From IMG/VR virus record IMGVR_UViG_3300037483_001818: DNA of 64,000 bases. One strand, given 5' to 3'. The notes under the pieces were generated by a model that worked only from the letters and a program-made list of their open reading frames with translations, was not told the origin of the DNA and ran no database searches. Shown here piece by piece: positions 6,507 to 39,779 of the stretch; position 1 is the stretch's first letter; each line of letters begins with the position of its first letter. The stretch is from a virus (taxonomy: Duplodnaviria > Heunggongvirae > Uroviricota > Caudoviricetes). The translations under genes and the position numbers were made by a program.

Positions 6507-7055
6507 TTACGATCTGATCTTGGCAAGCGCTCGTTCGAGCTTCTCGATCTTGGCGCGGTGCTTCGCTTGCTCGCGCTCCAGCACTTCGTCGCGTAGCTCT
6601 GGTTTGACGAGTGAGCTTACCCGCGGCGTGCGGCTCGCCTCTCGCGCGAGGTCCTTCTCGATTTCTCTCGCGACTAGCTCGCGGCCCATCTCGGTGAGGT
6701 GGAGCATGCCACCGTTCCTTGGCTCGATCAGACCCAGCGCGAGCGTTCGTTTGATGTGTGGGGCGTCGACGGCGGCCATGCGGCTCGGAAACGATGGGCC
6801 GTGTTCGAGGACCATCTGCGTGAGTGCGAACAGGTTCACGCCTGTAAGCGTCATCTTCTTCGGCGGAGCCTTCTTCGGGTACCCGAAGCCGAGAGCTTGC
6901 GCGACTTCGTAACGCTCTGCGGGCAGACCACCGGCTAAGATGGCGTCAATTTCGGTGTCGAGCTGCTCACGGGTCTTGAGCCCGGGCTTCTTCGGGATTC
7001 GACCGAGGGCCTCGCGGATCTCCTGATCGAGCTGGGCCGTTCGCTTCTTGGCCAT
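6507..7055 (-). CDS. hypothetical protein with N-terminal KKRTAQLDQEIREAL motif
   Basis: ORF track; carries the recurrent K-K-x-S/T-x-x-Q-L-D-x-E-I motif at its N-terminus. Confidence 0.55.
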   Translation of the reverse strand: MAKKRTAQLDQEIREALGRIPKKPGLKTREQLDTEIDAILAGGLPAERYEVAQALGFGYPKKAPPKKMTLTGVNLFALTQMVLEHGPSFPSRMAAVDAPHIKRTLALGLIEPRNGGMLHLTEMGRELVAREIEKDLAREASRTPRVSSLVKPELRDEVLEREQAKHRAKIEKLERALAKIRS

Positions 7056-7096
7056 ACGGTACGAGATCGTATCATCGTTCCGATAGAATCGCGTCC

Positions 7097-7480
7097 ATGG
7101 CGCTCACCCTGCCTGCTGATGCCGGCGAGCCGATGTCGGCGGTGCTCATCGCGAACTCCAAGGTCAAGCACCACGAGTTTCCAGCTCTCACGCGCCAGAT
7201 TTCGCTGCGCAACACGGGTACGAATACGCTGTGGCTCTCGCTGGACGAGGGGAAGAGCTATTTCGATGTGGCATGCGGAACGTCGTGGGATGACAGAGTG
7301 AGCATGCGGGAGCTGTGGTACTGCACGCAGCTTGGGAAGACGCGGTTCGTCGTGATTGGGTTGTCCCTCATGGACATTGGCGGGGACGGCGCTGGCGACA
7401 ATGATTCGGCGCGGCGTCCGGCGAAGCCGCAGCTTTCCCGGCGGTGGCTACCGTCGCGCATCGGCCGGGATCGGAGGTAG
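7097..7480 (+). CDS. hypothetical protein
   Basis: ORF track; non-repetitive beta-rich composition. Confidence 0.4.
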   Translation: MALTLPADAGEPMSAVLIANSKVKHHEFPALTRQISLRNTGTNTLWLSLDEGKSYFDVACGTSWDDRVSMRELWYCTQLGKTRFVVIGLSLMDIGGDGAGDNDSARRPAKPQLSRRWLPSRIGRDRR

Positions 7481-7959
7481 TTACGCCGCTCACGCATTAT
7501 CCCAAAACGGCGGAGAACCTGGTCTTTGCGTGGGTACAGCCGACTCCGCCGGACGTACCCCCGCAGGAAGGATTGCCAGACTTCTTGGGTCGCTCGTTCT
7601 CAGAGGTGAATCGCTTCGAGAAGGAAATTGTTCCCGGCGAAGTGGTGGTCGGTTATCACGACGCGCAGCCGTTCACGCGCTTTTACGGGTCGATCGCAAG
7701 TGATCAGCCTCTTGAGGTCACAATCTCGTTTTCGAATGACGAGGTCGCCGGTGACGGGCGCACGATCAGCGACGATAATATCGGATCGCTCAGCTACGAC
7801 GCCGAGGCGTTGAAGCAGTTTTACGATCCGAACAAGCAGGGTCCGACGGGAAAATACTTCTGCACGATCTTCGGGCACTGGATTCGCGTCGAGGTCAAGA
7901 ACGTCGGCGAGAAGCCTACGGCGAAGCTACGCGTATACGTCAGAGGCTCGGTATTCTAG
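7444..7959 (+). CDS. hypothetical protein
   Basis: ORF track. Confidence 0.45.
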   Translation: MATVAHRPGSEVVTPLTHYPKTAENLVFAWVQPTPPDVPPQEGLPDFLGRSFSEVNRFEKEIVPGEVVVGYHDAQPFTRFYGSIASDQPLEVTISFSNDEVAGDGRTISDDNIGSLSYDAEALKQFYDPNKQGPTGKYFCTIFGHWIRVEVKNVGEKPTAKLRVYVRGSVF

Positions 7960-7968
7960 TCTCGACGG

Positions 7969-8187
7969 ATGGCGAAGCATTCGGTCAAGACGCCGGTCGG
8001 CGGCAGCGTATGGACGCACTCGGTGGGAGTGGGTCAGCGTGTCGTTGTCGGCACGACCCTTTTGATCTGTGAGGTCATGAAAACGGAGTTTCCCGTCGAG
8101 GCGCCAGTCGATGGCGTCGTGAGCTGGCTCCGGCCGTGTGGAGATACGGTAGAAGCCGACGACGTCGTGGCTACGCTGGATGCGTAG
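7969..8187 (+). CDS. biotin/lipoyl-attachment-like small domain protein
   Basis: LLICEVMKTEFPVEAPVDGVV resembles biotinyl/lipoyl hairpin (E-x-M-K core). Confidence 0.4.
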   Translation: MAKHSVKTPVGGSVWTHSVGVGQRVVVGTTLLICEVMKTEFPVEAPVDGVVSWLRPCGDTVEADDVVATLDA

Positions 8188-8188
8188 C

Positions 8189-8899
8189 TCAGTCTTCAGG
8201 GTTCCAGCGAGACGCTGGAACGGACGCTTGTCGCGGCTTGATGCGATACGTGACGCCCGGCTTTTTCTTTGCCTTGTACTCGTCCTGCGCTTCCTTCGCG
8301 TCTGCCCGCGTCGAGAAGTGTTCGTGGAGCACGCGTTCGTTCTTGGTGCGCGTGTTCACTTCGAGCAGATCGTAGACGGTGTGCTTGTCCGCGCGCCGGG
8401 TTGCGTGGCCTCTGAGCCGGCTCAGGTACTGGAAGTACATTCGGGCCGTGGAGCCCGGCGCGTTCTTGCTCTTGCGGTAGCCGGCTTGTCGCGCGACCTC
8501 GGCAATGCGCGCGGCTTTGCTCATCGAGACGTCCGCGTGATAGTCGCGCGTGAAGTCGACGCCCTCGGATTCGAGGAGACGTTTGGCCTCGTGGGGATCG
8601 AGCTTCTTCTTCCTTGCGTGGGACTGGCTCGGAGCCTTCGCCTTGCCTGTGAAGCGAAGGGCCTCAGCGGAGAACCACGTGGCGCCAGTGTGTCCGTCCT
8701 TGGACTTGGAAACGAGGTATGACAAAGCATCGCCCTTTGATGGGCCGCTCTCGGTGTACATGCCGGGATGCGTGCTGTAACTGACGGCATGGCCGAATTG
8801 GCCTGGCTTCCAATACGGATGAGGACCCATGTCGTCGGTCTTCACGATCTGGACACGTCGCGGGGGTGTGATCGATGCTTGGATGTACTTGCCGGCCAT
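8189..8899 (-). CDS. hypothetical basic protein
   Basis: ORF track. Confidence 0.5.
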   Translation of the reverse strand: MAGKYIQASITPPRRVQIVKTDDMGPHPYWKPGQFGHAVSYSTHPGMYTESGPSKGDALSYLVSKSKDGHTGATWFSAEALRFTGKAKAPSQSHARKKKLDPHEAKRLLESEGVDFTRDYHADVSMSKAARIAEVARQAGYRKSKNAPGSTARMYFQYLSRLRGHATRRADKHTVYDLLEVNTRTKNERVLHEHFSTRADAKEAQDEYKAKKKPGVTYRIKPRQASVPASRWNPED

Positions 8900-8970: not shown

Positions 8971-9387
8971 TCAAATACCGAGCTTCATGCCGAGGAGTTC
9001 CATCTTGGCGAGCTGGGACTCGGCTTCCTTGAGGGCGGTGTAGACGTCCTTGATCGTGTCATTCAGGATCCCGCCAAGGTCTTCGAACGCACTCCCTGCT
9101 AGGGAGATTTCTTCGACGTTCGAAGCAAGATCGTTGATTCGGTCTTGGATCGCGCGCGCCTGGTTGGCATCTGTGCTGGAGGCTTCCTCGGGCAGTTTGT
9201 CGACGATGTCGTCGGCAAGCTGTCCAAGGCGATCGTAGACGCGTTCACGGTCTGTGGCGTGCTGCTTGTCGATCTTGGCGACCTGTCGAATTGTTTCTTT
9301 GCTCGCTTCGTGGAGCTTGGCGATCGCTTCGCGTGTATCAGCGATACGTGCACGCGTCCGCCGAGCGAAGTCTTCGGTCATCGTCAT
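8971..9387 (-). CDS. hypothetical coiled-coil protein
   Basis: ORF track. Confidence 0.5.
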   Translation of the reverse strand: MTMTEDFARRTRARIADTREAIAKLHEASKETIRQVAKIDKQHATDRERVYDRLGQLADDIVDKLPEEASSTDANQARAIQDRINDLASNVEEISLAGSAFEDLGGILNDTIKDVYTALKEAESQLAKMELLGMKLGI

Positions 9388-10697: not shown

Positions 10698-11261
10698 GTG
10701 GGCGGGGCGGTTTTCGTCATCTACGGATACGACGGTAAAATCCCCGCGGATCTGACAGCCGATCTGCTGATCTTCGGAAAACCGCGTCGAGGCAAGGGTT
10801 TTCATGGTAGAGATCGGTCGATGCCGGCCCACGCTCGCGTCAACGGCAGCGTCAGCGATTCCCATGCGGCAGGGCGCGCTCGGCAGCGTCTCAAGCTCGC
10901 GGCGATCGGCTACGTGAACGCTCGGCACGGCATCGACACTGACGTCGATCTGGCGCGCGGGGGGCTCATGGTCCTGTGCCAGATGGCGATCGAGTTTGTC
11001 GCCGCGCTTCCAGGGACACACCTGAAGAATCGTCGGATCGATCTCTATGCCCAGGGCAACAACGAGAGGCTCAAGCTCGCCGCAATCGCCTACGTGAGCG
11101 CTCGGCACGGCATCGACGCTGATGTTGGGATGACTCGCGAGGGACTCGCGCTCTTGTGCCAGGCATCGATCGACTTTGTCGAATCGTTGCCACGGGACGA
11201 TCAGGCCGCGAAACGGTCAACCGATCCTCACCACCAGATCGGAAATGGGGTGCAGCCTTGA
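10698..11261 (+). CDS. hypothetical protein with two ~44-aa tandem repeats
   Basis: RQRLKLAAIGYVNARHGIDTDVDLARGGLMVLCQMAIEFVAALP repeated as NERLKLAAIAYVSARHGIDADVGMTREGLALLCQASIDFVESLP, supports plus-strand coding. Confidence 0.4.
   Translation: MGGAVFVIYGYDGKIPADLTADLLIFGKPRRGKGFHGRDRSMPAHARVNGSVSDSHAAGRARQRLKLAAIGYVNARHGIDTDVDLARGGLMVLCQMAIEFVAALPGTHLKNRRIDLYAQGNNERLKLAAIAYVSARHGIDADVGMTREGLALLCQASIDFVESLPRDDQAAKRSTDPHHQIGNGVQP
10881..11192 (+). repeat. 180-bp period tandem coding repeat (2 copies)
   Basis: copies at 10881-11012 and 11061-11192. Confidence 0.55.
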
Positions 11262-11635
11262 CTGATTCGTCCAAATTGCTGAAGTCCTGGCCGCCGATCG
11301 CGTGTGACATCCTCGTCGACGCCGCTCGCTACTACTACAGCGAGATGAAGGAGCCGTGGCCGGTTCCCGCTGCGATCATGGAGCGCTCGATCGAGTTGGC
11401 GAACAAGGAGATTGCTGCGAAGCAGAGTGAGATCTACGAGGACGCATCCTCGCGCTGGATCAACCGTTGGGAGAGCGGCAAGCTCGACGCCGAGATGAGG
11501 CGCATGATCGAGGAAACGTATCGGAGGTTGTCTCGTGCTGAGGGCATGATTCGCCCGCGCGCGAGTGCCAGGAAGAAGAGTCCGAGGCAGCTCGACACCG
11601 AGATCGCCGCCACGCTCTCCGAGAAACGGAGATAG
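11156..11635 (+). CDS. hypothetical protein ending in RKKSPRQLDTEIAATL motif (start uncertain; ATG 11345 or TTG near 11258 possible)
   Basis: ORF track; C-terminal copy of the recurrent motif. Confidence 0.45.
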   Translation: MPGIDRLCRIVATGRSGRETVNRSSPPDRKWGAALTDSSKLLKSWPPIACDILVDAARYYYSEMKEPWPVPAAIMERSIELANKEIAAKQSEIYEDASSRWINRWESGKLDAEMRRMIEETYRRLSRAEGMIRPRASARKKSPRQLDTEIAATLSEKRR

Positions 11636-12927: not shown

Positions 12928-13929
12928 TTGGCCGGTGCCGTAACCGTGTCTGCGCGGCGCTTCGTTTGCGGCGCTTGTGGTCACGTACACGCTGCCTGGG
13001 CGGCGCGCTGCGCGAGCTGCTACTCGCACGGTCTTGCCCTTGCTTCTGAAGTGCCGGCACCCGCGCTCGTTCAATCACGCCCGGTTGCGGCGCAGAGCGC
13101 TCCGCAGCAGCAGGAAGAGCGTACTGTGCCGGAGCTTTCTCGTTTGCGTCTGGTGCGTGCACCCTCGCCCGAGCCCGAAATCTCGCCCGAGGAGCTGGTC
13201 GACGATGATGTGACTCCGTTGGATTCATCGTCTCCAGCGCCTGTCCCGATTACCGAGATCGCCACCGAGACGTCGTTCGTGCGTGACTCGACGGGCCTGA
13301 CGCCGCTCGATCATGTGCTGGGCGGAGGTTTGGTAGCAGCGTCCGTCATCCTACTCGCGTCGCCGCCGGGCATTGGAAAAACATCGCTGACGCTTCAGAT
13401 GCTCGCCGGCCTGGGGCACAGGTGCCTCTACGTTACGGGCGAGGAGACGCGAGAGCAGATCGCCGGGACCGCACAGCGCATCGGCGCACTGACGCCACGC
13501 TTGTATGTGCTCTGCGAGAACGATCTTGCGACGATTTTCGCGCATGCTCGAGCGATGCGTGCTCAGACGATCGCGATCGATTCGATCCAGAAAATGGTGT
13601 GCGATGACGTCAACGGTCGCGCCGGATCGACGGGACAGCTCAAGGAGTGCACGGCCCGCCTGGTTCACTATGCGAAGAATAACGAAACGGCTCTCTGGCT
13701 CATTGGGCACGTCACGAGTGACGGTGACGTCGCCGGTCCCAAGACGATCGAGCACGACGTCGACGTCGTGCTCGAGCTGTCACCAGGCCCGAAGTTCGAG
13801 GGCAATGAGCGAATTCTGCGATGCCCTGGTAAGAACCGCTTCGGACCTACCAACGTGGTGGGACACTTCGAACTGACCGCCAAGGGGTTTGTTGCCGTCG
13901 ACGCCGACGGGTGGAACGAGGAACTGTAA
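12928..13929 (+). CDS. RadA/Sms-like (Sak4-like) RecA-fold ATPase with N-terminal zinc ribbon, no Lon domain
   Basis: CGACGHV...CASC zinc ribbon; Walker A LASPPGIGKTSLTLQM; GLTPLDHVLGGGL matches the RadA glycine-rich segment. Confidence 0.7.
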   Translation: MAGAVTVSARRFVCGACGHVHAAWAARCASCYSHGLALASEVPAPALVQSRPVAAQSAPQQQEERTVPELSRLRLVRAPSPEPEISPEELVDDDVTPLDSSSPAPVPITEIATETSFVRDSTGLTPLDHVLGGGLVAASVILLASPPGIGKTSLTLQMLAGLGHRCLYVTGEETREQIAGTAQRIGALTPRLYVLCENDLATIFAHARAMRAQTIAIDSIQKMVCDDVNGRAGSTGQLKECTARLVHYAKNNETALWLIGHVTSDGDVAGPKTIEHDVDVVLELSPGPKFEGNERILRCPGKNRFGPTNVVGHFELTAKGFVAVDADGWNEEL

Positions 13930-14325: not shown

Positions 14326-15087
14326 TCAAACACGCCATTCGACCACATCGCCACGATCCCGGGCCCATTCATCGTGGCGCTCTGCCTCGCGCTCCGAGCG
14401 GAAGCCTGCTCCGCAGGAACAGCGATACTCCTTGTCGCTCTTGGAAGAGATGGTGTGCTTCCGTGGAGCTTTGGTGATCTTGGTTGTCGTCGCGTGCGAT
14501 CTGCGTCCCGGTGTGCGACTCAGCGGTCGTCCCGTAGCAGCCTTGAAGGACAGATCAGCTGGCCATCCCCACGTTCGACCACTGCGGTAGCGATCGATTT
14601 GCTCGGGTGTCATGCCTGACTGGGAATCGCCAAGTGCTTCAGCGATCTCTCGATCCAATTGGGCCGGTGACTTCTTCGTCGCGTGATGGCGTGACTTCGC
14701 AGGTGACGCTGACGCGCCTGACGCGCCTGACAAAAGCTCGACCTTGTAGAGCTTGCCCTTTGGCGGCCCAAGACTGACGTAACCCTCCTGTCCAGTGCCG
14801 AGGTTTCTCGACCACCAGCGATCCAACCCTTGGCCGAATCGATCCTGATCGCTCTCGCGCTCTCGCAAGATCTCGACGTCGGCGCCCTGATACCGGAAGC
14901 GCAATCCTGGTTTCAGATCCTTCGCAGCAAGATCCTTTGTGCGCTTCTTGGGCATCGGCTCTTGGCAGCCTACCGTTTCAAGGGACAAAGTTGAAGTTTC
15001 ACGCGCGCTGTCACCAGCGACGGCAAGACGCCGGATCGCGGCGTGGTCAAGGCGCTTTCCAACGTGCTCGACAAGCTGCGTAAACAT
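14326..15087 (-). CDS. hypothetical protein with internal TKKSPAQLDREIAEAL motif
   Basis: ORF track; motif encoded near 14640-14690. Confidence 0.45.
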   Translation of the reverse strand: MFTQLVEHVGKRLDHAAIRRLAVAGDSARETSTLSLETVGCQEPMPKKRTKDLAAKDLKPGLRFRYQGADVEILRERESDQDRFGQGLDRWWSRNLGTGQEGYVSLGPPKGKLYKVELLSGASGASASPAKSRHHATKKSPAQLDREIAEALGDSQSGMTPEQIDRYRSGRTWGWPADLSFKAATGRPLSRTPGRRSHATTTKITKAPRKHTISSKSDKEYRCSCGAGFRSEREAERHDEWARDRGDVVEWRV

Positions 15088-15884: not shown

Positions 15885-16391
15885 GTGAGTTACTACCGCG
15901 ACACAGCGACGGCGCTCGTACAGCGCGCCCCGGGAAACTTCATCGGCGTTGCGCTCTACGTGCCCACAAGTAAGTCGACATCGCCGTGGTGGAGCTTGGT
16001 GTCGTTCCCGAGCTCCAATGCAATGCAGGAGTGGTACGAGGAGATCGCTCCCTCGCACGCGCTCTATTACTATCTCGCCGCGTTCGACAAGACGCGCAGC
16101 GCCGAGCCTGTGGGAGAGTCGATCGCGCCACCCAAGCCCGGGGTACCTGGCTTCAACCTGCACATCACTGATCGCTGGCGACCGCCGTCGTTCAACAGGC
16201 CGGCAGTCTCTGGTGTGATGACAGCAGGTGAGCGCAGCGTCGCGACCACTGCGAAGACCCTCGGGCTCTTTGCGTTGTTCGCGATCCCCGCAGGACTTCT
16301 CCTTTCGAAGATGCAGGAGCGCAAACACGTCCGAGCGGAGAAAGCAGCGTTTCGGCGTTCTGGTTTGGACTGGGAGCAAAGGTTCCGGTAG
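15885..16391 (+). CDS. hypothetical protein with C-terminal TM segment
   Basis: GTG 15885 preceded by GGGGAGG; the Arg-rich upstream part of the track ORF is discounted. Confidence 0.45.
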   Translation: MSYYRDTATALVQRAPGNFIGVALYVPTSKSTSPWWSLVSFPSSNAMQEWYEEIAPSHALYYYLAAFDKTRSAEPVGESIAPPKPGVPGFNLHITDRWRPPSFNRPAVSGVMTAGERSVATTAKTLGLFALFAIPAGLLLSKMQERKHVRAEKAAFRRSGLDWEQRFR

Positions 16392-16394
16392 CCG

Positions 16395-16898
16395 GTGAAC
16401 ATGTCTCGCGGTGAGGTCAGCGAGGTCATCCCTGGCCTCTACATCGGAAGCAAGCCTCCGCCGGGCAAGCACGAAGGCATTGACGCGATCGTTCTTGCAG
16501 CGATGGAGTACCAGCCGCCTGCGCATCTGTTTCCGGCGACCGAGGTGATTCACGCACCGCTCGACGACGCGCCGGGGCGACACATGCGCGAAGACGAGAT
16601 CGTGACCGCGATCAAGGCCGCCAAGCGCGTTGCTTGGCTACTGCGCGCCGGTCGTCGCGTGCTCAGTACCTGCCAGATGGGCCTTAACCGATCGTCCCTA
16701 GTCGCTGCGCTCGCAATGCACGATGTCTATGGCGGCATGAGTGCGGATGAGATCGTGACGCGTGTGCGGCGAGCTCGTGGCAGGTGGGCGCTGTCGAATC
16801 CGAATTTCGAGAAGCTTTTGCGCGTCGTGGTTGGCTACGGCCAGAATTCTTCGTTGCATGGGATGTCCGATCCTGCGCCGACGGTGCGTCCCGCCTGA
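16395..16898 (+). CDS. dual-specificity (Cys-based) protein/RNA phosphatase-like
   Basis: CX5R active-site loop STCQMGLNRSS matches the DSP/PTP signature. Confidence 0.6.
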   Translation: MNMSRGEVSEVIPGLYIGSKPPPGKHEGIDAIVLAAMEYQPPAHLFPATEVIHAPLDDAPGRHMREDEIVTAIKAAKRVAWLLRAGRRVLSTCQMGLNRSSLVAALAMHDVYGGMSADEIVTRVRRARGRWALSNPNFEKLLRVVVGYGQNSSLHGMSDPAPTVRPA

Positions 16899-16901
16899 CC
16901 C

Positions 16902-17363
16902 ATGCGCATTCAGATTGCCCAGGGCGCGCCAGCTCTGATTTCACAGCGTCGCGAGGCGTTGTTGCACGATGCGTCGCTGCCGCTGACGGTGCGTGGATCT
17001 GCAAACGTGCACTTCGAGAAGCCGTGGATACCGAACTTCTGGACGGTCGCGATCCGTGCGCCCAAGCCTGGCAGCGAGAGCTTCTTCGACTTCCCGGTCG
17101 GTTACGCCGACGATGGCACGCCATGGTTCTTTCCGTCACGAGAGTGGTGGGTAGCGCACGCCAAGGCGAGTCATCCGCCCGACGGCATGGGTTGCGATGT
17201 CGACGTTCATACGAAGTTCCTCTCGAGCGAAGGATCTGTGCACGAGTTCGATTACGCGACGGTTCTCACCGATGGAACGATGCAGATCCTTGGGCGTGCG
17301 GACTTTGTCGATGAGTGCGCGTGGTGGTCGCACGCGTTTGGCGCGCGCGGAGGACAGCCGTGA
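16902..17363 (+). CDS. hypothetical protein
   Basis: ATG directly after upstream stop. Confidence 0.45.
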   Translation: MRIQIAQGAPALISQRREALLHDASLPLTVRGSANVHFEKPWIPNFWTVAIRAPKPGSESFFDFPVGYADDGTPWFFPSREWWVAHAKASHPPDGMGCDVDVHTKFLSSEGSVHEFDYATVLTDGTMQILGRADFVDECAWWSHAFGARGGQP

Positions 17364-17395
17364 AGATCAGCGCTCTATTGTTGAGGTGTCGTCGA

Positions 17396-17710
17396 TCACG
17401 CGTCCTCATTCTGGGAGGCGCGCGACGCTGCTGGTGCGGCGTCGGGCAATACTTCGAGGATTTCGGCGTCGCAGTAGCAACTGCCGCCTGCTGAGCAGGG
17501 CATGCCCAGCAGCGTGTAGCGCTTCGTGGTGTCGAGATCTGTGATGACGCCGTAGATGCCGGGACCTCGTCCATCGGCTAGTTCATGGTCCGCCGCGCTT
17601 ACTCGAAGTGCGACACGCTCGCCATGAAACATGGGTGTGAGGGTGGGACCTTCAAGCGGGATCTCGTAGTGCGTCTTGTCGGCGGACAGCGGCCACGGTT
17701 CCTTGATCAT
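17396..17710 (-). CDS. hypothetical protein
   Basis: ORF track; GAGG upstream. Confidence 0.45.
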   Translation of the reverse strand: MIKEPWPLSADKTHYEIPLEGPTLTPMFHGERVALRVSAADHELADGRGPGIYGVITDLDTTKRYTLLGMPCSAGGSCYCDAEILEVLPDAAPAASRASQNEDA

Positions 17711-17817
17711 CGTGGAGACCTCAGGGCTCTCGCGCTACTGGTGCGTTCACCTACCGATCGCTTCATGATGGCGGTGTTTTGAAGGCTCGCCTGCATCTTA
17801 AAGACGATACCGTGAAC

Positions 17818-18243
17818 TCACTCTTCCGCGGGCGGTTTCGGGATCCGATGCTCGACGGGTGTGATGTCGTCATCAGACAAGACAGTCGTGTCCTCAGAAG
17901 GTTTGACGACGTCGCGTGTGCTTGTCCGCGGGATCTCCGCGAGTGGTACACGAACCAGCGGTGTCATCTCGCCGGTCGGGATCCGTGGAGGCGTAACGTC
18001 GTCTTCATCGAGAAACGGAGCCATCACCAGATGAAGCACCCGCTGTGGATGATCGGGGACGTCGATGAGAACGAACAGGTCTCGTCCGGCTCCCTGACGG
18101 AGTCCTGGCAAGCGTCCGAGGCGGCGCATATCGTCTACCTCTTCCCAGATCTCGACGAGCTCCTCGTGGGCGAGCACCGTCTCGGCGGTTGCCAGGAACT
18201 TCCCGGTCTGACGGAAGTAGAGGAGCTGGACCCTGTACGGCAC
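17818..18243 (-). CDS. hypothetical acidic protein
   Basis: protein-like composition; preferred over the overlapping plus ORF 17779-18258. Confidence 0.45.
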   Translation of the reverse strand: MPYRVQLLYFRQTGKFLATAETVLAHEELVEIWEEVDDMRRLGRLPGLRQGAGRDLFVLIDVPDHPQRVLHLVMAPFLDEDDVTPPRIPTGEMTPLVRVPLAEIPRTSTRDVVKPSEDTTVLSDDDITPVEHRIPKPPAEE

Positions 18244-18622
18244 TGCCGAGGACGGTAGCTCGGCGTGATCTTGAGCGCGAATCTTCGGCAGTCATGACCG
18301 CACCTTCGCCCTGCGCTCATCGCGTTGGTTGACAGCCGCGTGTACATCGCGCTAGCCTTCTTCTTGTAGAGAAGCTCATGTCGATCGCAACCGCATCCAC
18401 GAGAGTCACAAGGCGCCAAGGCGTCATGGGACACGTGTGCGCGCGTCGCGATTGGGCCCACTCGGCGAATTTTGCCGGCAAAGGGACCGTCGAGGGTATC
18501 AAGCGCCAGCCGCAGCCCACGACCTATGAAGGGAAGGCTCCAGACTCGTAGACCAGGCTAGAACAGCCGAAACGATCTGGAGCCGCCCTGGGAACAAAAC
18601 CCTCGGCGGTTTTCTCGTTTTC

Positions 18623-18707
18623 GGGCGCGCAGACCGGCGTGGCTCCGGGCGTGGTTGTAACCCACGCATGCTTCTGCATCGTCTCGGTTCGATTCCGAGC
18701 GCGCCCA
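18623..18707 (+). tRNA. tRNA-Tyr (GTA), long variable arm
   Basis: acceptor GGGCGCG/CGCGCCC, T-arm CTCGGTTCGATTCCGAG, anticodon loop TTGTAAC. Confidence 0.6.
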
Positions 18708-18763
18708 CGAAGGAATGTGATGACGAAGAAGAAGCTCAAACGCACGGCCTCAAGTCCGCTCAC

Positions 18764-18843
18764 GGGCTCGTGGCAGAAAGGTTATGCACCCGACTTTTAA
18801 TCGGAGCCGCGAGGCAATGGGGGTTCGACTCCCTCCGGGCCCA
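18764..18843 (+). tRNA. tRNA-Lys (TTT), extended variable region
   Basis: acceptor GGGCTCG/CGGGCCC, T-arm GGGGGTTCGACTCCCTC, loop CTTTTAA. Confidence 0.5.
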
Positions 18844-18858
18844 CGCACACAAGATCGA

Positions 18859-18929
18859 TCAGGGTTCGTCCAACGGTAGGACCTGCGCCTCTGGAGCGCA
18901 TGACGAGGGTTCGAATCCTTCACCCTGAA
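18859..18929 (+). tRNA. tRNA-Gln (CTG)
   Basis: U1:A72 acceptor TCAGGGT/ACCCTGA (bacterial Gln feature), D-arm GTCCAACGGTAGGAC, loop CTCTGGA. Confidence 0.55.
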
Positions 18930-19081
18930 CTGCACGCTGACTGCATCGCGCGTGAATCGACGGTCCCCCGAGCAACAGCGCTCACAGCGGGACGACAGCG
19001 ACACGGCGAAGGCGGGGCGAATGACAAGCGAATAGTTCGATGATGATGACGCGATCGCGGCATGTAGCGCGATCGCAGCTT

Positions 19082-19154
19082 GTCACTCTTGCGTAGTTGG
19101 TCTGCGCGCTCGGTTGAAACCCGGGAGGTTCTGGTTCGATTCCAGAGGGTGACG
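19082..19154 (+). tRNA. tRNA-Phe (GAA)
   Basis: acceptor GTCACTC/GGGTGAC, T-arm TCTGGTTCGATTCCAGA, loop TTGAAAC. Confidence 0.6.
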
Positions 19155-19169
19155 CAACGGCATAACTGC

Positions 19170-19240
19170 GGGTCGCAAGCATTATGGTGATGCACTGGTC
19201 TCTTAAACCGGTGATCAGGGTTCGATCCCCTGGCGACCCA
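19170..19240 (+). tRNA. tRNA-Lys (CTT)
   Basis: acceptor GGGTCGC/GCGACCC, T-arm CAGGGTTCGATCCCCTG, loop CTCTTAA. Confidence 0.65.
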
Positions 19241-19261
19241 CGTTACGTGAAGCGATGTTCT

Positions 19262-19333
19262 CGAGGTGTGGCCCAACGGTAGGGTACGTCGTTTGGGACG
19301 ACGGGACTGGAGGTTCGATTCCTCTCACCTCGA
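19262..19333 (+). tRNA. tRNA-Pro (TGG)
   Basis: acceptor CGAGGTG/CACCTCG, D-arm GCCCAACGGTAGGGT, loop TTTGGGA. Confidence 0.65.
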
Positions 19334-19441
19334 CGAGTGACACGGGCATCCGAGAGCCCGGCCGGCGATCGTGTGCACGATCGCCGCGGCAACGATGAGA
19401 CACCTGCTCCGGTGTTTGAAAGGCGACTCGGGTTTCTTCTC

Positions 19442-19513
19442 GCGGACGAGGCCGCTTGGTGCGGCGTCAGCGTGCCAAGCTGATTCAGGCGGGTTCGATC
19501 CCCGTCGTCCGCT
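19442..19513 (+). tRNA. tRNA-Gly (GCC)
   Basis: acceptor GCGGACG/CGTCCGC, U73, loop GTGCCAA, T-arm GCGGGTTCGATCCCCGT. Confidence 0.65.
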
Positions 19514-19525
19514 CGACTGCCCTCT

Positions 19526-19596
19526 GCCCTCGCAGCACGAAGGTCGTGCATCGGTTTCGTAAACCGGAGGTTCGAGTTCAATTCTCGACGAGGGCT
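19526..19596 (+). tRNA. tRNA-Thr (CGT)
   Basis: acceptor GCCCTCG/CGAGGGC, loop TTCGTAA, T-arm TCGAGTTCAATTCTCGA. Confidence 0.6.
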
Positions 19597-19712
19597 CGAA
19601 AGCGAACGCGTGGGATTCAACTTCTCCACGACGGGGCAAAAGCTGATGGAAGCGAATCGGCCGATAATGCGTCCTGAAAGATCTCTGAAGGCTGGGCCTG
19701 CGTTCGTGATTT

Positions 19713-19785
19713 GCTCGCGTAGCTCAGCTAGCAGAGCGCTCGTTTTGTAAACGAGATGACGCAGGTGCAATGCCTGCCGCGAGCT
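19713..19785 (+). tRNA. tRNA-Thr (TGT), T-loop TGCAATG
   Basis: acceptor GCTCGCG/CGCGAGC, D-arm GCTCAGCTAGCAGAGC, loop TTTGTAA. Confidence 0.6.
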
Positions 19786-19796
19786 CGACGCTTCAT

Positions 19797-19868
19797 TCCC
19801 CGGTAGCACAATGGTGGTGCGGTCGGCTGTTAACCGAAGGGTTGCCCGTTCGAATCGGGCTCGGGGAG
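19797..19868 (+). tRNA. tRNA-Asn (GTT)
   Basis: acceptor TCCCCGG/TCGGGGA, T-arm GCCCGTTCGAATCGGGC, loop CTGTTAA. Confidence 0.55.
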
Positions 19869-19873
19869 CTTCT

Positions 19874-19946
19874 GCGAACGTGGTGTATTGGTCGCATGCA
19901 GGTCTTCCAAACCTTGCGGTGATGGGTTCGAGTCCCTCCGTTCGCT
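19874..19946 (+). tRNA. tRNA-Gly (TCC)-like, weak T-stem (possible pseudo-tRNA)
   Basis: perfect acceptor GCGAACG/CGTTCGC, loop CTTCCAA, T-loop TTCGAGT but only 3 bp of T-stem. Confidence 0.4.
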
Positions 19947-19950
19947 CGAT

Positions 19951-20023
19951 GCGCGCGTAGCTTAGTGGCGAAAGCATTTGCCTGACGTGCAGAGGATCGC
20001 GAGTTCGAGTCTCGCCGCGCGTA
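19951..20023 (+). tRNA. tRNA-Val (GAC)
   Basis: acceptor GCGCGCG/CGCGCGT, D-arm GCTTAGTGGCGAAAGC, T-arm GCGAGTTCGAGTCTCGC. Confidence 0.55.
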
Positions 20024-20028
20024 CTGTT

Positions 20029-20101
20029 GTCGTGTTCGTCTAGCGGCCTAGGACACTGGTCCCTCAAACCGGTTACGCGAGTTCGATTCTCGCACACGAC
20101 G
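20029..20101 (+). tRNA. tRNA-Glu (CTC)
   Basis: D-arm TCGTCTAGCGGCCTAGGACA is near-identical to canonical bacterial tRNA-Glu; loop CCCTCAA (C33). Confidence 0.6.
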
Positions 20102-20117
20102 CTGAAGAAGTTTTTCT

Positions 20118-20193
20118 GCCCCTGTAGCTCAGCAGATCAGAGCACTCGGCTACGAACCGAGGTTAGTCGGAGGTGCAATTCCTTCCAGGGGTA
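20118..20193 (+). tRNA. tRNA-Arg (ACG), T-loop TGCAATT
   Basis: ACTCGGCTACGAACCGAG anticodon arm as in bacterial Arg-ACG; acceptor GCCCCTG/CAGGGGT. Confidence 0.65.
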
Positions 20194-20195
20194 CT

Positions 20196-20262
20196 AGGCG
20201 CACGTGCACGTGGGCAGCTCGCGTTGGTGTCCCACCACCTTCGCGAGGACTGGTGCACGCCG
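20196..20262 (+). ncRNA. long imperfect hairpin (structured RNA candidate)
   Basis: GCGCACGTGCAC...GTGCACGCCGCGC outer stem enclosing CTCGCG/CGCGAG and GGTG/CACC inner pairings. Confidence 0.25.
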
Positions 20263-20361
20263 CGCTTCATTTTGCTTCGACGGCTCGCTGCTTGTTGCAA
20301 GGCGAGTGATGGTGATGCCGCTCGCTGGCAAACCTCGGGGTGCACTCTCCGAAGTTAGGTC

Positions 20362-20451
20362 AGGCCGTCGAGGGAGTTTCTAGGTCGCGCGAGCTGGGCT
20401 CGGCTTGGAGTCCAAATCCAATGCGGCAGGGTTCAATTCCCTGGCGGCCTG
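20362..20451 (+). ncRNA. atypical 90-nt tRNA-like RNA: good acceptor and T-arm, no canonical D/anticodon arms
   Basis: AGGCCGT/GCGGCCT acceptor pairing, T-arm CAGGGTTCAATTCCCTG; the interior folds into CGAGC-TGG-GCTCG and TTGGA-GTCCAAA-TCCAA hairpins instead. Confidence 0.35.
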
Positions 20452-20532
20452 CGGCTTGTGGGGTCTTGGCCTCGCGGCAACGTGAGGAGGGAGCCAAAGA
20501 GAACTAGGTGAGAGTCCTGGGGACCCGATCTT

Positions 20533-20605
20533 GGCGCGCAGATCACCTGGCGGTGATGTCGGTCTCATATGCCGAATGCGGAGGGTTCAATTCCCTCGCG
20601 CGCTA
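20533..20605 (+). tRNA. tRNA-Met elongator or Ile2-type (CAT)
   Basis: acceptor GGCGCGC/GCGCGCT, loop CTCATAT, T-arm GAGGGTTCAATTCCCTC. Confidence 0.6.
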
Positions 20606-20650
20606 CCTACTAATTTAGGAGTAACTAGTAGTTCGTTAGTAGTTCGTTCA

Positions 20651-20722
20651 CGGGGTGTAGCGAAGTGGTATCGCGCTGCGTTCGGGACGCAGAGACCGCT
20701 GGTTCGATCCCAGTCACCCCGA
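20651..20722 (+). tRNA. tRNA-Pro (CGG)
   Basis: acceptor CGGGGTG/CACCCCG, D-arm GCGAAGTGGTATCGC, loop TTCGGGA. Confidence 0.65.
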
Positions 20723-20757
20723 CGATTGGATGCTGGATATGGGCGTGGTGGCGGCAC

Positions 20758-20849
20758 GGATGCGGGTTCGATCCCCGTCGGGTCCACGACGGGCCCGTGG
20801 CTGGTGCCTACGGAGATATCCACCAGGGGTTCGACTCCCCTCGCGTCCA
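20758..20849 (+). ncRNA. composite tRNA-like element with two T-arm modules
   Basis: GGATGCG pairs with CGCGTCC 85 nt downstream; contains GCGGGTTCGATCCCCGT and AGGGGTTCGACTCCCCT; no clean D/anticodon arms. Confidence 0.3.
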
Positions 20850-20855
20850 CGACAC

Positions 20856-20928
20856 GGAGGACAGTTCACCTAGGGGTGATGGCGGTCCTACAAACCGCTC
20901 GCGGTCGGTGCAATCCCGACGTTCTCTA
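20856..20928 (+). tRNA. tRNA-Val (TAC), T-loop TGCAATC
   Basis: acceptor GGAGGAC/GTTCTCT, anticodon arm GCGGTCCTACAAACCGC. Confidence 0.5.
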
Positions 20929-20935
20929 CGATGAC

Positions 20936-21006
20936 GTCTCGTTAGCACAGCGGTAGTGCAGTCGCTTGATAAGCGGCCGACGAAGGTTCGACCCCTTCAC
21001 GAGACA
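20936..21006 (+). tRNA. tRNA-Ile (GAT)
   Basis: acceptor GTCTCGT/ACGAGAC, D-arm GCACAGCGGTAGTGC, loop TTGATAA. Confidence 0.65.
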
Positions 21007-21015
21007 CGACGGCCT

Positions 21016-21086
21016 GGGCCTCTAGTTCAATGGAGAACGTCTGCCTTATCAGCGGAATGTTGAGGGTGCAAATCCTTCGGGGCCTA
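21016..21086 (+). tRNA. tRNA-Ile (TAT), rare anticodon; T-loop TGCAAAT
   Basis: acceptor GGGCCTC/GGGGCCT, D-arm GTTCAATGGAGAAC, loop CTTATCA. Confidence 0.45.
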
Positions 21087-21094
21087 CGATTCGT

Positions 21095-21168
21095 GGTGTG
21101 CGTAGTCATCTGGTGAAGACGCTGGGTTGTGGTCCCAGTTCAGGCGAGTTCGATCCTCGTCGCACACC
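21095..21168 (+). tRNA. tRNA-His (GTG) with encoded G-1
   Basis: G-1 plus GTGTGCG/CGCACAC with C73, loop TTGTGGT, T-arm GCGAGTTCGATCCTCGT. Confidence 0.65.
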
Positions 21169-21174
21169 CTGTCT

Positions 21175-21249
21175 CGAGCAGTAGCTTAGCCTGGCTAAAG
21201 CGTTGGTCTGGGGGACCAAAGATCGCAGGTTCAAATCCTGTCTGCTCGA
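21175..21249 (+). tRNA. tRNA-Pro (GGG)
   Basis: acceptor CGAGCAG/CTGCTCG, loop CTGGGGG, T-arm GCAGGTTCAAATCCTGT. Confidence 0.55.
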
Positions 21250-21326
21250 CGAAAGGAGAATGCGGCTGATCTACTGTCAGATCTGTCGCCAAGGAGCGTC
21301 TAGTCTACCGAAGGAGAACGAACGTC

Positions 21327-21863
21327 ATGGAGCCGACACATCAAACGCTTGTCCTTAGTCAGGGCTATGAGCCCGTTAAGATCGTTTCGTGGCAGCGCGC
21401 GATCACGATGCTCTTCCTCCACAAGGTCGAAGTGATCGAGGAGTACGATCGCAACATCAAGACGACGTCGTTCGTCGCCAAGATCCCCGCGGTCGTGCGG
21501 CTGCTCAAAGCGTTCCGTCGGTACAAGAAGCCGGTGAAGTTCTCCCGGATCAACATCTACGGCCGCGACAAGTACACCTGCCAGTATTGTGGCGTGAAGA
21601 AGTCGATCCACGATCTGACGTATGACCACATCGTGCCTCGATCGCGAGGCGGCAAGACGACGTGGACGAACATCGCAACGTGCTGCCAAGGCTGCAACGG
21701 CAGGAAGGCGAACCGTACGCCCGAGCAGGCCGGCATGCGTTTGCTCCAGGTGCCCGAGCAGCCAATCTCGTCGCCGGTGCTCGTCGTGACCGTGAGCCGC
21801 CAGTCTGCACCCGACGCGTGGCGCGACTACCTGTACTGGACCGGCGAGCTGGACCAGGACTGA
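21327..21863 (+). CDS. HNH endonuclease
   Basis: YTCQYCG...LTYDHIVPRSRGGKTTWTNIATCCQGCNGRK HNH motif. Confidence 0.8.
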   Translation: MEPTHQTLVLSQGYEPVKIVSWQRAITMLFLHKVEVIEEYDRNIKTTSFVAKIPAVVRLLKAFRRYKKPVKFSRINIYGRDKYTCQYCGVKKSIHDLTYDHIVPRSRGGKTTWTNIATCCQGCNGRKANRTPEQAGMRLLQVPEQPISSPVLVVTVSRQSAPDAWRDYLYWTGELDQD

Positions 21864-21888
21864 TCAAGCGAGCGACGTGCTCGCATCT

Positions 21889-21962
21889 GGGAACGTGGGA
21901 GAGATGGAGTCTCCGCCGGCCTGTCACGCCGGAGGTCGCGGGTTCAAGTCCCGTCGTTCCCG
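21889..21962 (+). tRNA. tRNA-Asp (GTC)
   Basis: acceptor GGGAACG/CGTTCCC with G73, loop CTGTCAC, T-arm GCGGGTTCAAGTCCCGT. Confidence 0.65.
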
Positions 21963-22067
21963 CCGATAGCGTGGTCGATCACCGCGCGTCGATGACTCAT
22001 CCTCGCAAGGGGCTCCTTTTTGGGATGCCGCGCACGTCGAGCGCTCGGCGACGCGGCTGGGTCTTCT

Positions 22068-37413: not shown

Positions 37414-38288
37414 TGCGGGAAGATAGAGCAGCTCGCGTGCCGATCATGGAGACGCGTAAGTGTCCGTCCGAGAAGCCTGGGTAGACGACCACCCAGTCTC
37501 CACGCGTGCCCAGGTGCCCAGGTACGTAGCGCTCGAGACACGGGTAGCGAGCTACTCACTGCATCTCAGGCATCCCAGGCCAGGCGGCCAGGCGGCCAGG
37601 CCAGTTGGTGTGCGGCGTGTAGTTCCGAGGCTGGCCGTCCGGCGCGAAACAGCGTCCGCGAGACGGCGTGGGTGTCGATCTAGGCTGCTTGTTTTTGTGG
37701 ACAACGACGCCGAGTGCAGCTCGGTGAGCGTGAATGTTTTCGATCGCTCACGGCTTTGCAGCGATGCGTTTCAGTGCTCGTGTTGATTCCAAGATCGAAG
37801 ACAAAAACATCCCACCTGCCATGCCGATAGTAGCGCCTGCGCTTCGATCCTCGGGAGAGGACACAGCACGCCCAGTTAATGCACCTGCGAGCGCCCACAG
37901 CACGAACGAACCAAGATCGAGGGCAGAGCTAACTTGGTCGGAAGCGACGCCCGAGACTGGAACGGACGCCCTGCTCGCGTGCATGGCGTAGTATCCGTTG
38001 GAGCCGTTGGAGCCGTACCGTCCACGTTCGTTCATGGCTACATGATACATTGCTCAAGGCGGTCCCGTTCACAACCTTCACGAGCGAGGCGCCCTTGAGG
38101 CCAAGCGCGTCCGCGAGCGGTTGCTAGCCCGTCAGGTATTGAGGAACCTACCCCTTCTGAGGCACGGCCCCATCGCAAGGCGTGCTGTCGGGACTCGGAG
38201 ATCTTGCTGCCGGCCCCCTCCATGAAACCGTGCCTTTCTCCTCGCTGCGGGGCGCCTGGTTCGGCTAGGTTCCTCGAAGGAGGCATGT

Positions 38289-38747
38289 ATGAGTGACAAG
38301 ATCGCGAGGCTCGGGATCCAGCGCGACAACGACCTGATGTACTACATCAAGGATGGCGACGTCTGGGCCACGCCGCGCAAGCAGAAGGGTCAGCCCAAGG
38401 GCAAGGCCCGGAAGATTGCTCCGGCCGGCCTCGAGATGGACTACAGCCGTTATATTTACTTTCTCGACGGTGATGGGGACGTTGCGCGCAAGGCACGCGC
38501 CCTCGGCGGTGGCGGTCGGAAGGCGAAGGCTAAGCCGGCCAAGGTCGCGAAGCCAAGCAAGGCGGCGAAGTCGGTAGCGCCGTCGACACCGTCAACATCG
38601 GCGCCACCGAAGAAAGTCGGCAAGAAGAGCGAAGCTCAGCTCGACCGCGAGATCGAGGAGTGTCTCGCGCAGGCCGAGAAGGGCGGGAACGGGAACGAAG
38701 GCAGCGACGAGTCAGCCAAGCCCGCTGGCAAGAAGAAGCACCGCTAG
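38289..38747 (+). CDS. histone-H1-like Lys/Ala-rich protein carrying GKKSEAQLDREIEECL motif
   Basis: strong RBS GAAGGAGG; KAKPAKVAKPSKAAKSVAPSTPS tail. Confidence 0.6.
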   Translation: MSDKIARLGIQRDNDLMYYIKDGDVWATPRKQKGQPKGKARKIAPAGLEMDYSRYIYFLDGDGDVARKARALGGGGRKAKAKPAKVAKPSKAAKSVAPSTPSTSAPPKKVGKKSEAQLDREIEECLAQAEKGGNGNEGSDESAKPAGKKKHR

Positions 38748-38760
38748 CTGCTAGCAGTGG

Positions 38761-39045
38761 CTATGCCTCGGGTGTGGTGTGGTTGGGTAGAGTCGATCGG
38801 TGCTCGCGCAGATCAGTGAGTGCGGCCTCGTCGAGGCTCTCGAACAGTTCCCAGCACACCTCGCGTCGGGCCTCGACAAAACCCATTTTCCTTAGCCGAT
38901 TGTCCTGCCACACAATCCACCAGAAGCGGTTCGTCTTGTCGTACGTGAGCCAGACGGTCGTCTTGCCGATCGTTCGTTTCTTGGCGATGACACCGCAGCG
39001 ATCGCTCTGGCCGGTCTGTGGATCGACGGCAACCAGGTCCTTCAC
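38761..39045 (-). CDS. hypothetical protein
   Basis: ORF track. Confidence 0.45.
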   Translation of the reverse strand: MKDLVAVDPQTGQSDRCGVIAKKRTIGKTTVWLTYDKTNRFWWIVWQDNRLRKMGFVEARREVCWELFESLDEAALTDLREHRSTLPNHTTPEA

Positions 39046-39320
39046 ACTGACGATCCTACCAGACCACTACGACGAAGTTGCGTCCACACCGCGGGCTGGG
39101 CGACACTTACGAGGATGCAGCGTGATGACCGTGCGGCGACGACGGCGGTCCCTTCCGTCGTAGACCAGCAGCGCGGTCAGTACCTAGCCGCGGCCGATGG
39201 AAAGAAGAGTGGCGGTGCTGGAGGCGTTTTGCTTCTTCTGGGGATCGCGGCGGGCGTGTACGCGCTTTCCCCGGGCGCACGGCACTTCTACAAGCACGGC
39301 TATTTGCCGCCCTACCGTCG

Positions 39321-39779
39321 ATGAACCACTCGCGTTCTCCCCGCTTGCGCTTGCTAGGCCGCGTCGCCGGCCTGGTGATCTACCTCGTTGATGGTGAGAA
39401 GGTCCGTGATGTGATCGACATTGACTTCACGATGGGCGGCAACGAGGCGCGCTACAGCTACGTTCCACCTGGCGAGATTTGGATCGACAACGCAGAGCAT
39501 GTGCTCGATCGCACCGCGACGGCTCTTCATGAGCTGGTAGAGCGCGATCTCATGCTTCATCACGGAATGAGCTACGACTCTGCTCACGACGCCGCGAACG
39601 CCCGCGAGCGCGCGTTTCGCCAAGACCTTGAGCGCCGCCGCCCGTCGCGGTTCGATGCCCGTCGCGTCGGAGAGGCATACCGCATCTATTTCCGAGAGAA
39701 GCCGATCCGCAAGAGATCGCGCCAGCTCGACAGTGAGATTGCCGCGGCCCTGGCGCGGCCCGATAGGAGTACCTCGTGA
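39321..39779 (+). CDS. hypothetical protein ending in RKRSRQLDSEIAAAL motif
   Basis: ATGA overlap with upstream ORF; C-terminal copy of the recurrent motif. Confidence 0.5.
   Translation: MNHSRSPRLRLLGRVAGLVIYLVDGEKVRDVIDIDFTMGGNEARYSYVPPGEIWIDNAEHVLDRTATALHELVERDLMLHHGMSYDSAHDAANARERAFRQDLERRRPSRFDARRVGEAYRIYFREKPIRKRSRQLDSEIAAALARPDRSTS

Follow-up and report, generated by a model that had tools for sequence, protein, structure and literature searches.

In phage T4, internal proteins are routed by a capsid-targeting sequence (CTS), whose leaders are of the MKTYQEFIAE type. Apart from the CTS, these small basic proteins, whose genes often form arrays, are highly diverse and have nothing in common; the CTS sends the internal proteins IPI, IPII and IPIII and the Alt propeptides to the prohead core, so that they are packaged and injected, and it can be transferred to foreign proteins (PMC3012670, PMC9026906). 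It ends in L/I-x-E, the prohead protease cutting after the Glu, and Alt, an ADP-ribosyltransferase (ART), is processed at both ends (PMC9026906). Here we describe a peptide motif, referred to as the tag, for which the T4 CTS is the closest analogue. It recurs in otherwise unrelated proteins (the carriers) encoded by a 64,000-nucleotide stretch of the IMG/VR record IMGVR_UViG_3300037483_001818, assigned to Caudoviricetes and referred to as the window, and by related contigs. Sequence comparisons strongly support the tag as a real, non-random and portable peptide module, and a docking or targeting role is the best-supported reading that fits the observations.

The tag in the window and in related contigs

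In the six-frame translation of the 64-kb window the pattern QLD.EI occurs six times, distributed over five open reading frames (ORFs), whereas 300 codon shuffles gave a mean of 0.013 and a maximum of 1 occurrence; LD.EI...L likewise occurs six times against 0.023 expected from codon shuffles. A motif hidden Markov model (HMM) was built from the six window copies, and it detected the five carrier ORFs, numbered here by position, with E values of 1e-15 to 3e-6, the next best translated window segment reaching 0.74. This clean gap between carriers and other ORFs sets the motif apart as a distinct unit rather than the extreme of a graded series of matches. The initial annotation had listed five copies in five ORFs; all of these are present, but it overlooked a sixth.

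Copy 1, KKRTAQLDQEIREAL, lies at 7005–7049 on the minus strand, where it forms residues 3–17 of carrier 1 and represents the N-terminal type. The overlooked copy 2, LKTREQLDTEIDAIL (6936–6980, minus strand), stands in tandem with it in ORF 6507–7055 and is kept in the carrier 1 orthologues P0009–P0011. Copy 3, RKKSPRQLDTEIAATL (11570–11617, plus strand), is of the C-terminal type, lying 5 residues ahead of the stop codon of carrier 2, and is kept in the homologues P0004 and P0123. Copy 4, RHHAT-KKSPAQLDREIAEAL (14632–14691, core 14632–14676, minus strand), is interdomain within carrier 3 and has the full form seen outside the window. Copy 5, KKSEAQLDREIEECL (38622–38666, plus strand), lies near the C-terminus of carrier 4 behind a Lys/Ala/Pro-rich tail and is kept in P0072, P0104 and P0109, while copy 6, RKRSRQLDSEIAAAL (39708–39752, plus strand), is C-terminal in carrier 5 and has a basic part one residue shorter. 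One copy is thus N-terminal, one is the second of a tandem pair, one is internal and three are C-terminal.

A word-indexed search with a longer profile returned 7 proteins only, and the six-copy profile was therefore searched exhaustively against 1.84 billion cluster representatives (E<=1e-3), which yielded 181 carrier clusters with lengths of 39–1425 aa. The consensus of 226 distinct instances is R-H-H-A-T-K-K-S-P-A-Q-L-D-R-E-I-A-E-A-L-A. With the Gln as position 0, the frequencies, which are biased by the profile that found the instances, are K 85% at -5, K 94% at -4, S or T 95% at -3, P 69% at -2, A 81% at -1, Q 98% at 0, L 99% at +1, D 82% at +2, R 85% at +3, E 99% at +4, I 99% at +5 and L 94% at +9. 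Carrier contigs span 194–461 kb, have 60–70% GC and are ORFan-rich. The DNA pattern for KKSPxQLDREI was found in 53 stretches of JGI metagenome contigs and had no match in 185,579 GTDB bacterial and archaeal species represented by one genome each. The shorter QLDREIAEAL gave 7 matches in the same genomes, which were taken as chance because the 4 readable ones carry no basic patch, and the 17 IMG/VR loci matching the DNA pattern for KKxxxQLDxEIxxxL were all low-GC chance matches. A tblastn search of INPHARED with the consensus peptide and carrier 3 gave no match, and full-text literature searches for motif strings found no description. As far as these databases show, the tag appears confined to one clade of huge, phage-like, uncultivated elements.

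No family shared by the carriers emerged when those of the window and 145 outside it were scanned against Pfam, PHROGs and NCBIfam, and a PDB profile search with the motif gave nothing below E 0.19. The best non-significant look-alike was chain G of 5sup, the Yra1 peptide EKPAKKSLEDLDKEMA (E 0.55), presumably bound there to the helicase Sub2. This peptide is a eukaryotic short linear motif in which a basic patch is followed by a short helix, a layout like that of the tag, and is mentioned as an analogy only.

Within the clade the tag is abundant. The fetched loci hold 84 motif instances in 274 kb, including 5 carriers in 21 kb of locus L026 and at least 9 consecutive tagged genes in 5.9 kb of locus L035, although these densities are upper bounds because the loci were chosen for holding a match. 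The window has 5 carriers among ~100 genes; in the element and its relatives about 5% of the genes have the tag.

Position within the carrier is not fixed. Of 153 representatives, 23 have the motif in their first 12 residues and 11 have it no further than 25 residues from the C-terminus, the others having it internally; counted over distinct instances, 48 of 226 are N-terminal and 123 of 226 stand behind an upstream domain and the H-A-T (HAT) of the consensus. N-terminal copies, of the form M-P-[R]-K-K-[S/T]-P-A-Q-L-D-R-E-I, are preceded by Shine-Dalgarno-like sequences of their own and by in-frame stops, which indicates that they are genuine starts. The proteins attached are equally varied. 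With the motif masked, all-against-all BLAST of the carriers gave 53 components, 37 of them singletons, and the one large component is a chain in which no fewer than 21 N-side and no fewer than 17 C-side domain families are joined combinatorially at the motif. About 10 of 145 carriers match Pfam, each another family (among them DUF3560, DUF6496, sigma-70 region 4, aspartyl protease, SPOR, HTH_24 and EFP_N), and PHROGs matches include a primase, a sigma factor and a regulator. In the array of L035 (869–5684, minus strand; JGI Ga0334722_10019048) the tag is at or near the N-terminus or internal, the bodies are unrelated, and there are single matches to PARP/ART-PolyVal and to ParB_N; a GNAT-like segment was also noticed in this locus, by eye only.

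In the family of carrier 5 the tag is not a constant part. Its 116 homologues divide into 35 with a strong tag, 43 with a degenerate one and 38 with none, and ~20 shorter, more distant members stop directly behind the globular domain, which shows the tag to be an add-on that is gained, lost and decaying. What the carriers have in common is their general character, since none of 155 has a membrane-like segment, their median length is 190 aa, and 89% have a pI above 9 compared to 47% of 66 non-carrier window proteins (odds ratio 9, p=1e-10); in the window all five lie at 9.4–10.0. The carriers are small, soluble, very basic and otherwise unrelated proteins.

Ordinary paralogy, in which a fast-diverging family would retain one short recognisable block, or mere chance, is extremely unlikely as an explanation. 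Tagged genes do occur in tandem arrays, as would result from gene-family expansion, but the carriers have dissimilar folds and Pfam domains (KOW-like barrel, winged helix, PARP, ParB_N, sigma region 4), the motif ranges in position from N-terminus to C-terminus, the same domain is found with and without the tag, and the shuffle expectation of 0.013 speaks against chance; on these grounds paralogy and chance are regarded as refuted already. The initial annotation had proposed a portable module rather than paralogy, and this claim is upheld by carriers that are unrelated outside the motif, by their different predicted folds, by the many N-side and C-side families and by a family with tagged and untagged members. 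It had also named two results that would tell against the motif, homology of the carriers and a similar frequency in unrelated proteomes. Neither was obtained: the five window carriers with the motif masked show no significant pairwise similarity (best E 0.18), and no true matches occur in GTDB species genomes, IMG/VR or INPHARED.

Conservation resides in the peptide. The coding DNA of the six window copies is only 68% identical, the invariant L, D, E and I being encoded by differing synonymous codons; across the 226 distinct instances the third positions of S, P, A, L and D are free to vary while Q, L, E and I are 98–99% conserved. Because synonymous sites vary while amino acids are fixed, selection is placed at the peptide level. 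The HAT codons behave differently, being almost always CAC GCG ACG (fetched loci such as L024, L036, L041, L047 and L055; window 14677–14691), with GCG used for the Ala in 83% of cases versus 42% in the same ORFs (p=1e-7) and GCC in 2% versus 31%; Arg(+3) is CGY in 95% of copies. This bias suggests a constraint at the nucleotide level; RNA structure was considered for the motif and rejected (mean fold z-score -0.36, no palindrome).

The codon bias, together with the fact that domains are combined exactly at the motif, could be taken to mean that a DNA-level signal is selected and the peptide is its passenger, either as a ~50-nt recombination linker for in-frame domain swaps or as a selfish insertion of the Rickettsia palindromic element type. 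This is very unlikely given the free synonymous sites and fixed amino acids of the helix, the low DNA identity of the window copies and the lack of any palindrome or fold signal; recombination at the motif may moreover be a by-product of conservation, and would leave retention of the peptide unexplained. In-frame recombination at a conserved stretch probably does drive domain shuffling, as a consequence of the conservation and not as its reason.

Helix, junction element and possible roles

The predicted tag opens with a Lys-Lys patch, followed by S/T-P-A-Q, a textbook helix-capping box, and then by Q-L-D-R-E-I-A-E-A-L, which would form three turns of an amphipathic helix. AlphaFold2 (AF2) models of carriers 1 and 3 predict it as a separate helix lying outside the folded domains on flexible linkers. 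On a helical wheel the near-invariant Q0, L1, E4, I5 and L9 span 0–180 degrees and the variable positions centre at 278 degrees, with a hydrophobic moment of 0.49 for the motif helix, although the clustering on one face is statistically not strong, being equalled by 21% of random choices. A second flavour of the motif, Q-L-Q-R-E-I-D-E, has Q(+2)/D(+6) in place of D(+2)/A(+6), and both flavours are present in the same contig. The replacement is paired (24 Q/D pairs and 5 Q/N pairs; Fisher p=1e-15, uncorrected for relatedness) and moves the acidic group by one helical turn on the same flank, the pattern expected of a docking helix that is recognised on one face.

A tag that acts by itself, through self-association of the helix into an assembly or condensate or through binding of DNA or RNA by basic patch and helix, appears improbable by comparison with docking. 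A KK patch ahead of an acidic amphipathic helix makes the segment zwitterionic and might allow head-to-tail pairing, one protein has copies in tandem, and carriers are basic, some with H1-like Lys/Ala/Pro tails as in carrier 4. The helix part is nonetheless net acidic and matches no known DNA-binding motif, 10–14 residues are short for a stable coiled coil, and Q, E and the capping box are so strictly conserved that specific recognition seems likelier than generic stickiness.

Internal copies of the tag usually have R-x-H-A-T upstream, and this element is also found without a helix at other module boundaries of carriers. Carrier 3 has one such RSHAT, within GRRSHATTTK, at 14488–14502 (minus strand), where its chain is predicted to be disordered. 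Extra H[AS]T sites number 68 in 29,028 carrier residues, ~9-fold enriched by a rough composition estimate, and have a conserved context of R(-2), S/H(-1), K/R(+3) and K(+4), with Met next in 17%. Within the window alone R-x-H-A-T is not clearly enriched (HAT[KR] 11 versus 4.3 +/- 2), and N-terminal and most window copies of the tag are without HAT. Decayed-looking pieces were noticed in 8189–8899 (SQSHARKKKLDPHEAKRLLE and RLRGHATRR) and in 8971–9387 (KQHATDRE), all on the minus strand, and none of them scores with the motif HMM.

These sites raise the possibility that R-x-H-A-T and helix serve solely as a processing signal, marking where a phage protease would cut bead-on-a-string polyproteins, without any targeting. 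Both the motif and the extra RSHAT sites are found where disordered linkers join modules, the enrichment and conserved context of H[AS]T are as a cutting signal would have them, and a cut after HA or HAT would give ends like the natural N-terminal class M-P-K-K-T-P-A-Q; three genes for HExxH or HExxH-like proteins also stand together at 39321–40825. Even so, processing as the sole function has a low probability, as helices are poor protease substrates, the 15–20-residue conserved helix far exceeds the three residues needed by known prohead proteases (PMC9026906), copies 2–5 residues from the N-terminus or 5–10 from the stop would free tiny peptides only, and HAT is missing from N-terminal and most window copies.

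Docking is the reading to which the portability, linker position and one-sided covariation of the tag lead us. On N-terminal, C-terminal or interdomain linkers, it would dock unrelated small basic proteins onto a common receptor. We tentatively favour, with clearly less than even confidence, a portable address tag that would bring all carriers to one receptor, most likely the assembling prohead core; the choice of the core rests on the analogy with phage T4, and we infer the docking, the identity of the partner and the cleavage alike. As in the internal proteins of T4, the carriers are small and basic and their tagged genes form tandem arrays with unrelated bodies, and as in the CTS there is a conserved Glu; a further parallel is that tagged genes include ART and ParB-type domains like those of virion-delivered polyvalent proteins (PMC5512222). 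A Glu-specific prohead protease may cut at this invariant Glu, and the R-x-H-A-T ahead of the tag may be a junction or processing signal. The 99% conservation of Glu(+4), along with I-x-E (I+5, E+7) in 77% of copies, fits proteases that cut after L/I-x-E, although Glu(+4) itself sits in L-D-x-E, unlike the T4 pattern (PMC9026906); the protein may be cut behind the E of LDxE. In a broader version, to be entertained with the same reserve, the tag would be a clade-specific sorting signal of 200–460 kb phage-like elements with a dedicated receptor, sending ~5% of their genes' products to one destination, and R-x-H-A-T would be a processing signal for module fusion or release. Carriers might be sent into the injected proteome or to an intracellular compartment of a new kind.

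Several observations weigh against prohead targeting. Receptor, virion protein and protease were none of them identified. The window and ~330 kb of fetched flanks showed no gene for capsid, portal or terminase, and no virion genes were found near tagged genes, which lie in accessory, ORFan-rich regions. The I-x-E is present in only three of the six window copies. More than half of all copies are internal, whereas the T4 CTS is strictly N-terminal, and the sigma factor, primase and regulators among the carriers need not be packaged at all. The tag shows no similarity to any known targeting peptide in searches of PDB, Pfam, NCBIfam and PHROG. It also differs from the CTS in being 15–20 rather than 10 residues long, more often internal or C-terminal than a leader in about the first 10 residues, and preceded by R-x-H-A-T, which has no T4 counterpart.

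Several of the same observations would suit a short linear motif for docking to a hub inside infected cells, by which accessory proteins are gathered on one DNA-bound platform (a clamp, an SSB-like protein, an RNA-polymerase-like protein or a replication/transcription compartment) with no packaging. Tagged genes lie in non-structural regions, carriers are very basic, the tag takes N-terminal, internal and C-terminal positions on disordered linkers like clamp-binding motifs, and the recognisable carrier domains are related to nucleic acids (sigma-70 region 4, primase, regulator, winged helix, ParB_N, ART, KOW/EF-P-like). We consider this reading nearly as likely as prohead targeting, and still doubtful in itself, since no hub was identified, the motif misfits QL[SD]LF in having R-E and not hydrophobic residues at positions 4–5, and ~5% of genes, including ORFan arrays, would be a large clientele for a single replisome hub.

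If the tag is an address label, it would provide a listing, from sequence alone, of those proteins of uncultivated huge phages that are sent to one place, for example to be injected against the host, and most of these are ORFans that no other method groups. It would further offer a handle for receptor discovery and a portable means of loading foreign proteins, a use to which the T4 CTS has already been put. A tag at either terminus or between domains, with a HAT element and combinatorial shuffling, would exemplify a linear motif driving modular virus evolution. Given that the motif was not found in the searched cultured phages and 185,579 reference genomes, its lineage is open ground.

Carrier proteins and the surrounding element

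Carrier 1 (6507–7055, minus strand; 182 aa, pI 9.9) comprises two N-terminal tags, a winged-helix-like domain and a long C-terminal helix. AF2 places low-confidence helices at residues 2–18 and 29–41, corresponding to the tag copies, ahead of a confident globular domain whose best fold matches are all MarR/IdeR/PadR-like winged-helix regulators; these matches are non-significant (E ~0.2) and no more than suggestive. The initial annotation was right that all five ORFs carry the motif, but two of their starts are, from homologues, probably later. The mechanical ORF of carrier 2 begins at 11156 and overlaps the gene at 10698–11261; its true start is probably 11378, matching the Met of homologue P0004, which would give a gene at 11378–11635 (plus strand) for a protein of 85 aa with pI 10.0. 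The ORF of carrier 3 (14326–15087, minus strand; 253 aa) probably begins at 14955 (MPKKRTKDL...), as in P0012 and P0084, leaving 209 aa with pI 10.0.

Carrier 3 combines a KOW/EF-P-domain-I-like barrel, a linker, the tag and short helical modules. In the AF2 model the small barrel occupies residues ~50–120 with a predicted local distance difference test (pLDDT) score above 90 and resembles EF-P domain I (Foldseek probability 1.0, E 2e-3, 26–30% identity over ~60 residues). It is followed by a disordered linker (127–137) containing RHHATKK, by the motif helix (141–154, pLDDT ~84) and, at residues 194–230, by a region with pLDDT below 50. A stand-alone barrel of this type is unusual in a phage-like element; one outside carrier matches Pfam EFP_N, and the KOW-like N-domain alone gave no candidate as query in a word-index search.

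Carriers 4 (38289–38747) and 5 (39321–39779), both of 152 aa and on the plus strand, have pI values of 9.9 and 9.4. A protein identical to carrier 4 is present on four other metagenome contigs, and a contig of 328,796 bp encodes one identical to carrier 5. Carrier 5, from the 116-member family considered above, matches phrog_15218 and has a conserved HELVERD...H region. Directly after it lies a gene for a YgjP-like/SprT/WLM HExxH metallopeptidase (39776–40162, plus strand), followed by one for a SprT-like HExxH protein (40166–40825, plus strand). These three consecutive genes (39321–40825, plus strand) appear related, all being HExxH or HExxH-like, and possibly specify processing enzymes for tagged proteins.

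The window has 62% GC and 43 tRNA genes in arrays at 18623–23513, 29993–34040, 46705–47003 and 54034–54282, including a possible candidate four-base-anticodon tRNA at 46930–47003. It also encodes a tmRNA (53560–53921, minus strand; tag peptide ANDNNGAVALAAA), RtcB (48331–50415) and a release factor (RF-1/PCRF), which along with the tRNAs make up a translation toolkit typical of huge phages. Other families recognised are TnpB-type transposase, VWA, SPFH and AAA proteins, a RadA/KaiC-like ATPase, HNH endonucleases, AlkB-like, ThiF, PnuC-like, HEAT and sigma-70 region-4 proteins; the majority of ORFs have no family match. The RadA/Sms-like ATPase gene (12928–13929, plus strand) sits between carriers 2 and 3, and its product has an N-terminal zinc ribbon, a KaiC/DnaB_C-type P-loop and KNRFG, and is without the Lon-like C-terminal domain. 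Genes of the TnpB/IS605 family (OrfB_IS605 plus Cas12f-like TNB) occur at 61497–62690 (plus strand) and, among the fetched loci, at 16043–18568 (minus strand) of L024, where an 813-aa ORF apparently fuses an IS66-type DDE domain to the TNB domain.

Phage identity of the element is plausible from its gene content. As capsid, portal and terminase genes were not seen, it is called huge-phage-like here and we infer its phage nature. Megablast of window positions 30–45 kb against INPHARED (50,697 phage records) gave no match and the window AAA protein gave distant matches only, so that no close relative was found among these records. Two motif-clade proteins, P0051 (HSX23305.1) and P0192, come from contigs of 118 kb and 3.8 kb in a metagenome-assembled genome labelled Gaiellaceae bacterium, which represents either a mis-binned phage contig or a hint of an actinobacterial host.

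Comparison with known systems

Peptides that direct encapsulin and microcompartment cargo are short, terminal or interdomain and attached by a flexible linker, and attach unrelated enzymes to the inside of a protein shell; in microcompartments they take the form of amphipathic helices. The tag, as modelled, shares this design, being a short amphipathic helix set off by linkers at either terminus or between domains. Its consensus is different, it is found on dozens of carriers per genome as opposed to one or a few, and no match to an encapsulin, HK97-fold shell or BMC-domain protein was found in the window or flanks, so that cargo genes beside a shell gene are not seen. Clamp-binding motifs (QL[SD]LF, the PIP box and the gp45-binding tails of T4 gp43, gp33 and gp55) are likewise independent of position, lie in disordered segments and dock unrelated DNA and transcription proteins, including a sigma factor, to one hub. 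The tag begins Q-L-D as the bacterial clamp motif begins Q-L-D/S, but is helical, longer and preceded by the KK patch and capping box, and with R in 85% and E in 99% of instances at its fourth and fifth positions it conforms neither to Q-L-[SD]-L-F nor to Q-L-x-L-x-L.

Of Rickettsia palindromic elements, the tag has neither the conservation at DNA level nor the palindrome or fold, the CAC GCG ACG bias being the exception. Polyvalent proteins present a diversified arsenal of effectors (ART-PolyVal, ParB-like, metallopeptidase), which presumably enter together with the DNA and whose domains also exist in solo versions (Iyer 2017, PMC5512222). The ART-PolyVal and ParB_N domains of L035 recall this arsenal, as do those carriers that are multi-module beads on a string. 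Polyvalent proteins are, however, large, with 2–15 effector domains and typically an embedded metallopeptidase (PMC5512222), whereas the carriers are mostly small, single-domain proteins of mostly ORFan domains, and the HExxH genes at 39776–40825 are separate; no shared linear tag is described for polyvalent proteins in that paper (PMC5512222). Taken against these systems, the tag is new in its sequence, its position independence, its HAT junction element and the number of its carriers, and known in kind, as one more member of the targeting and docking peptides.

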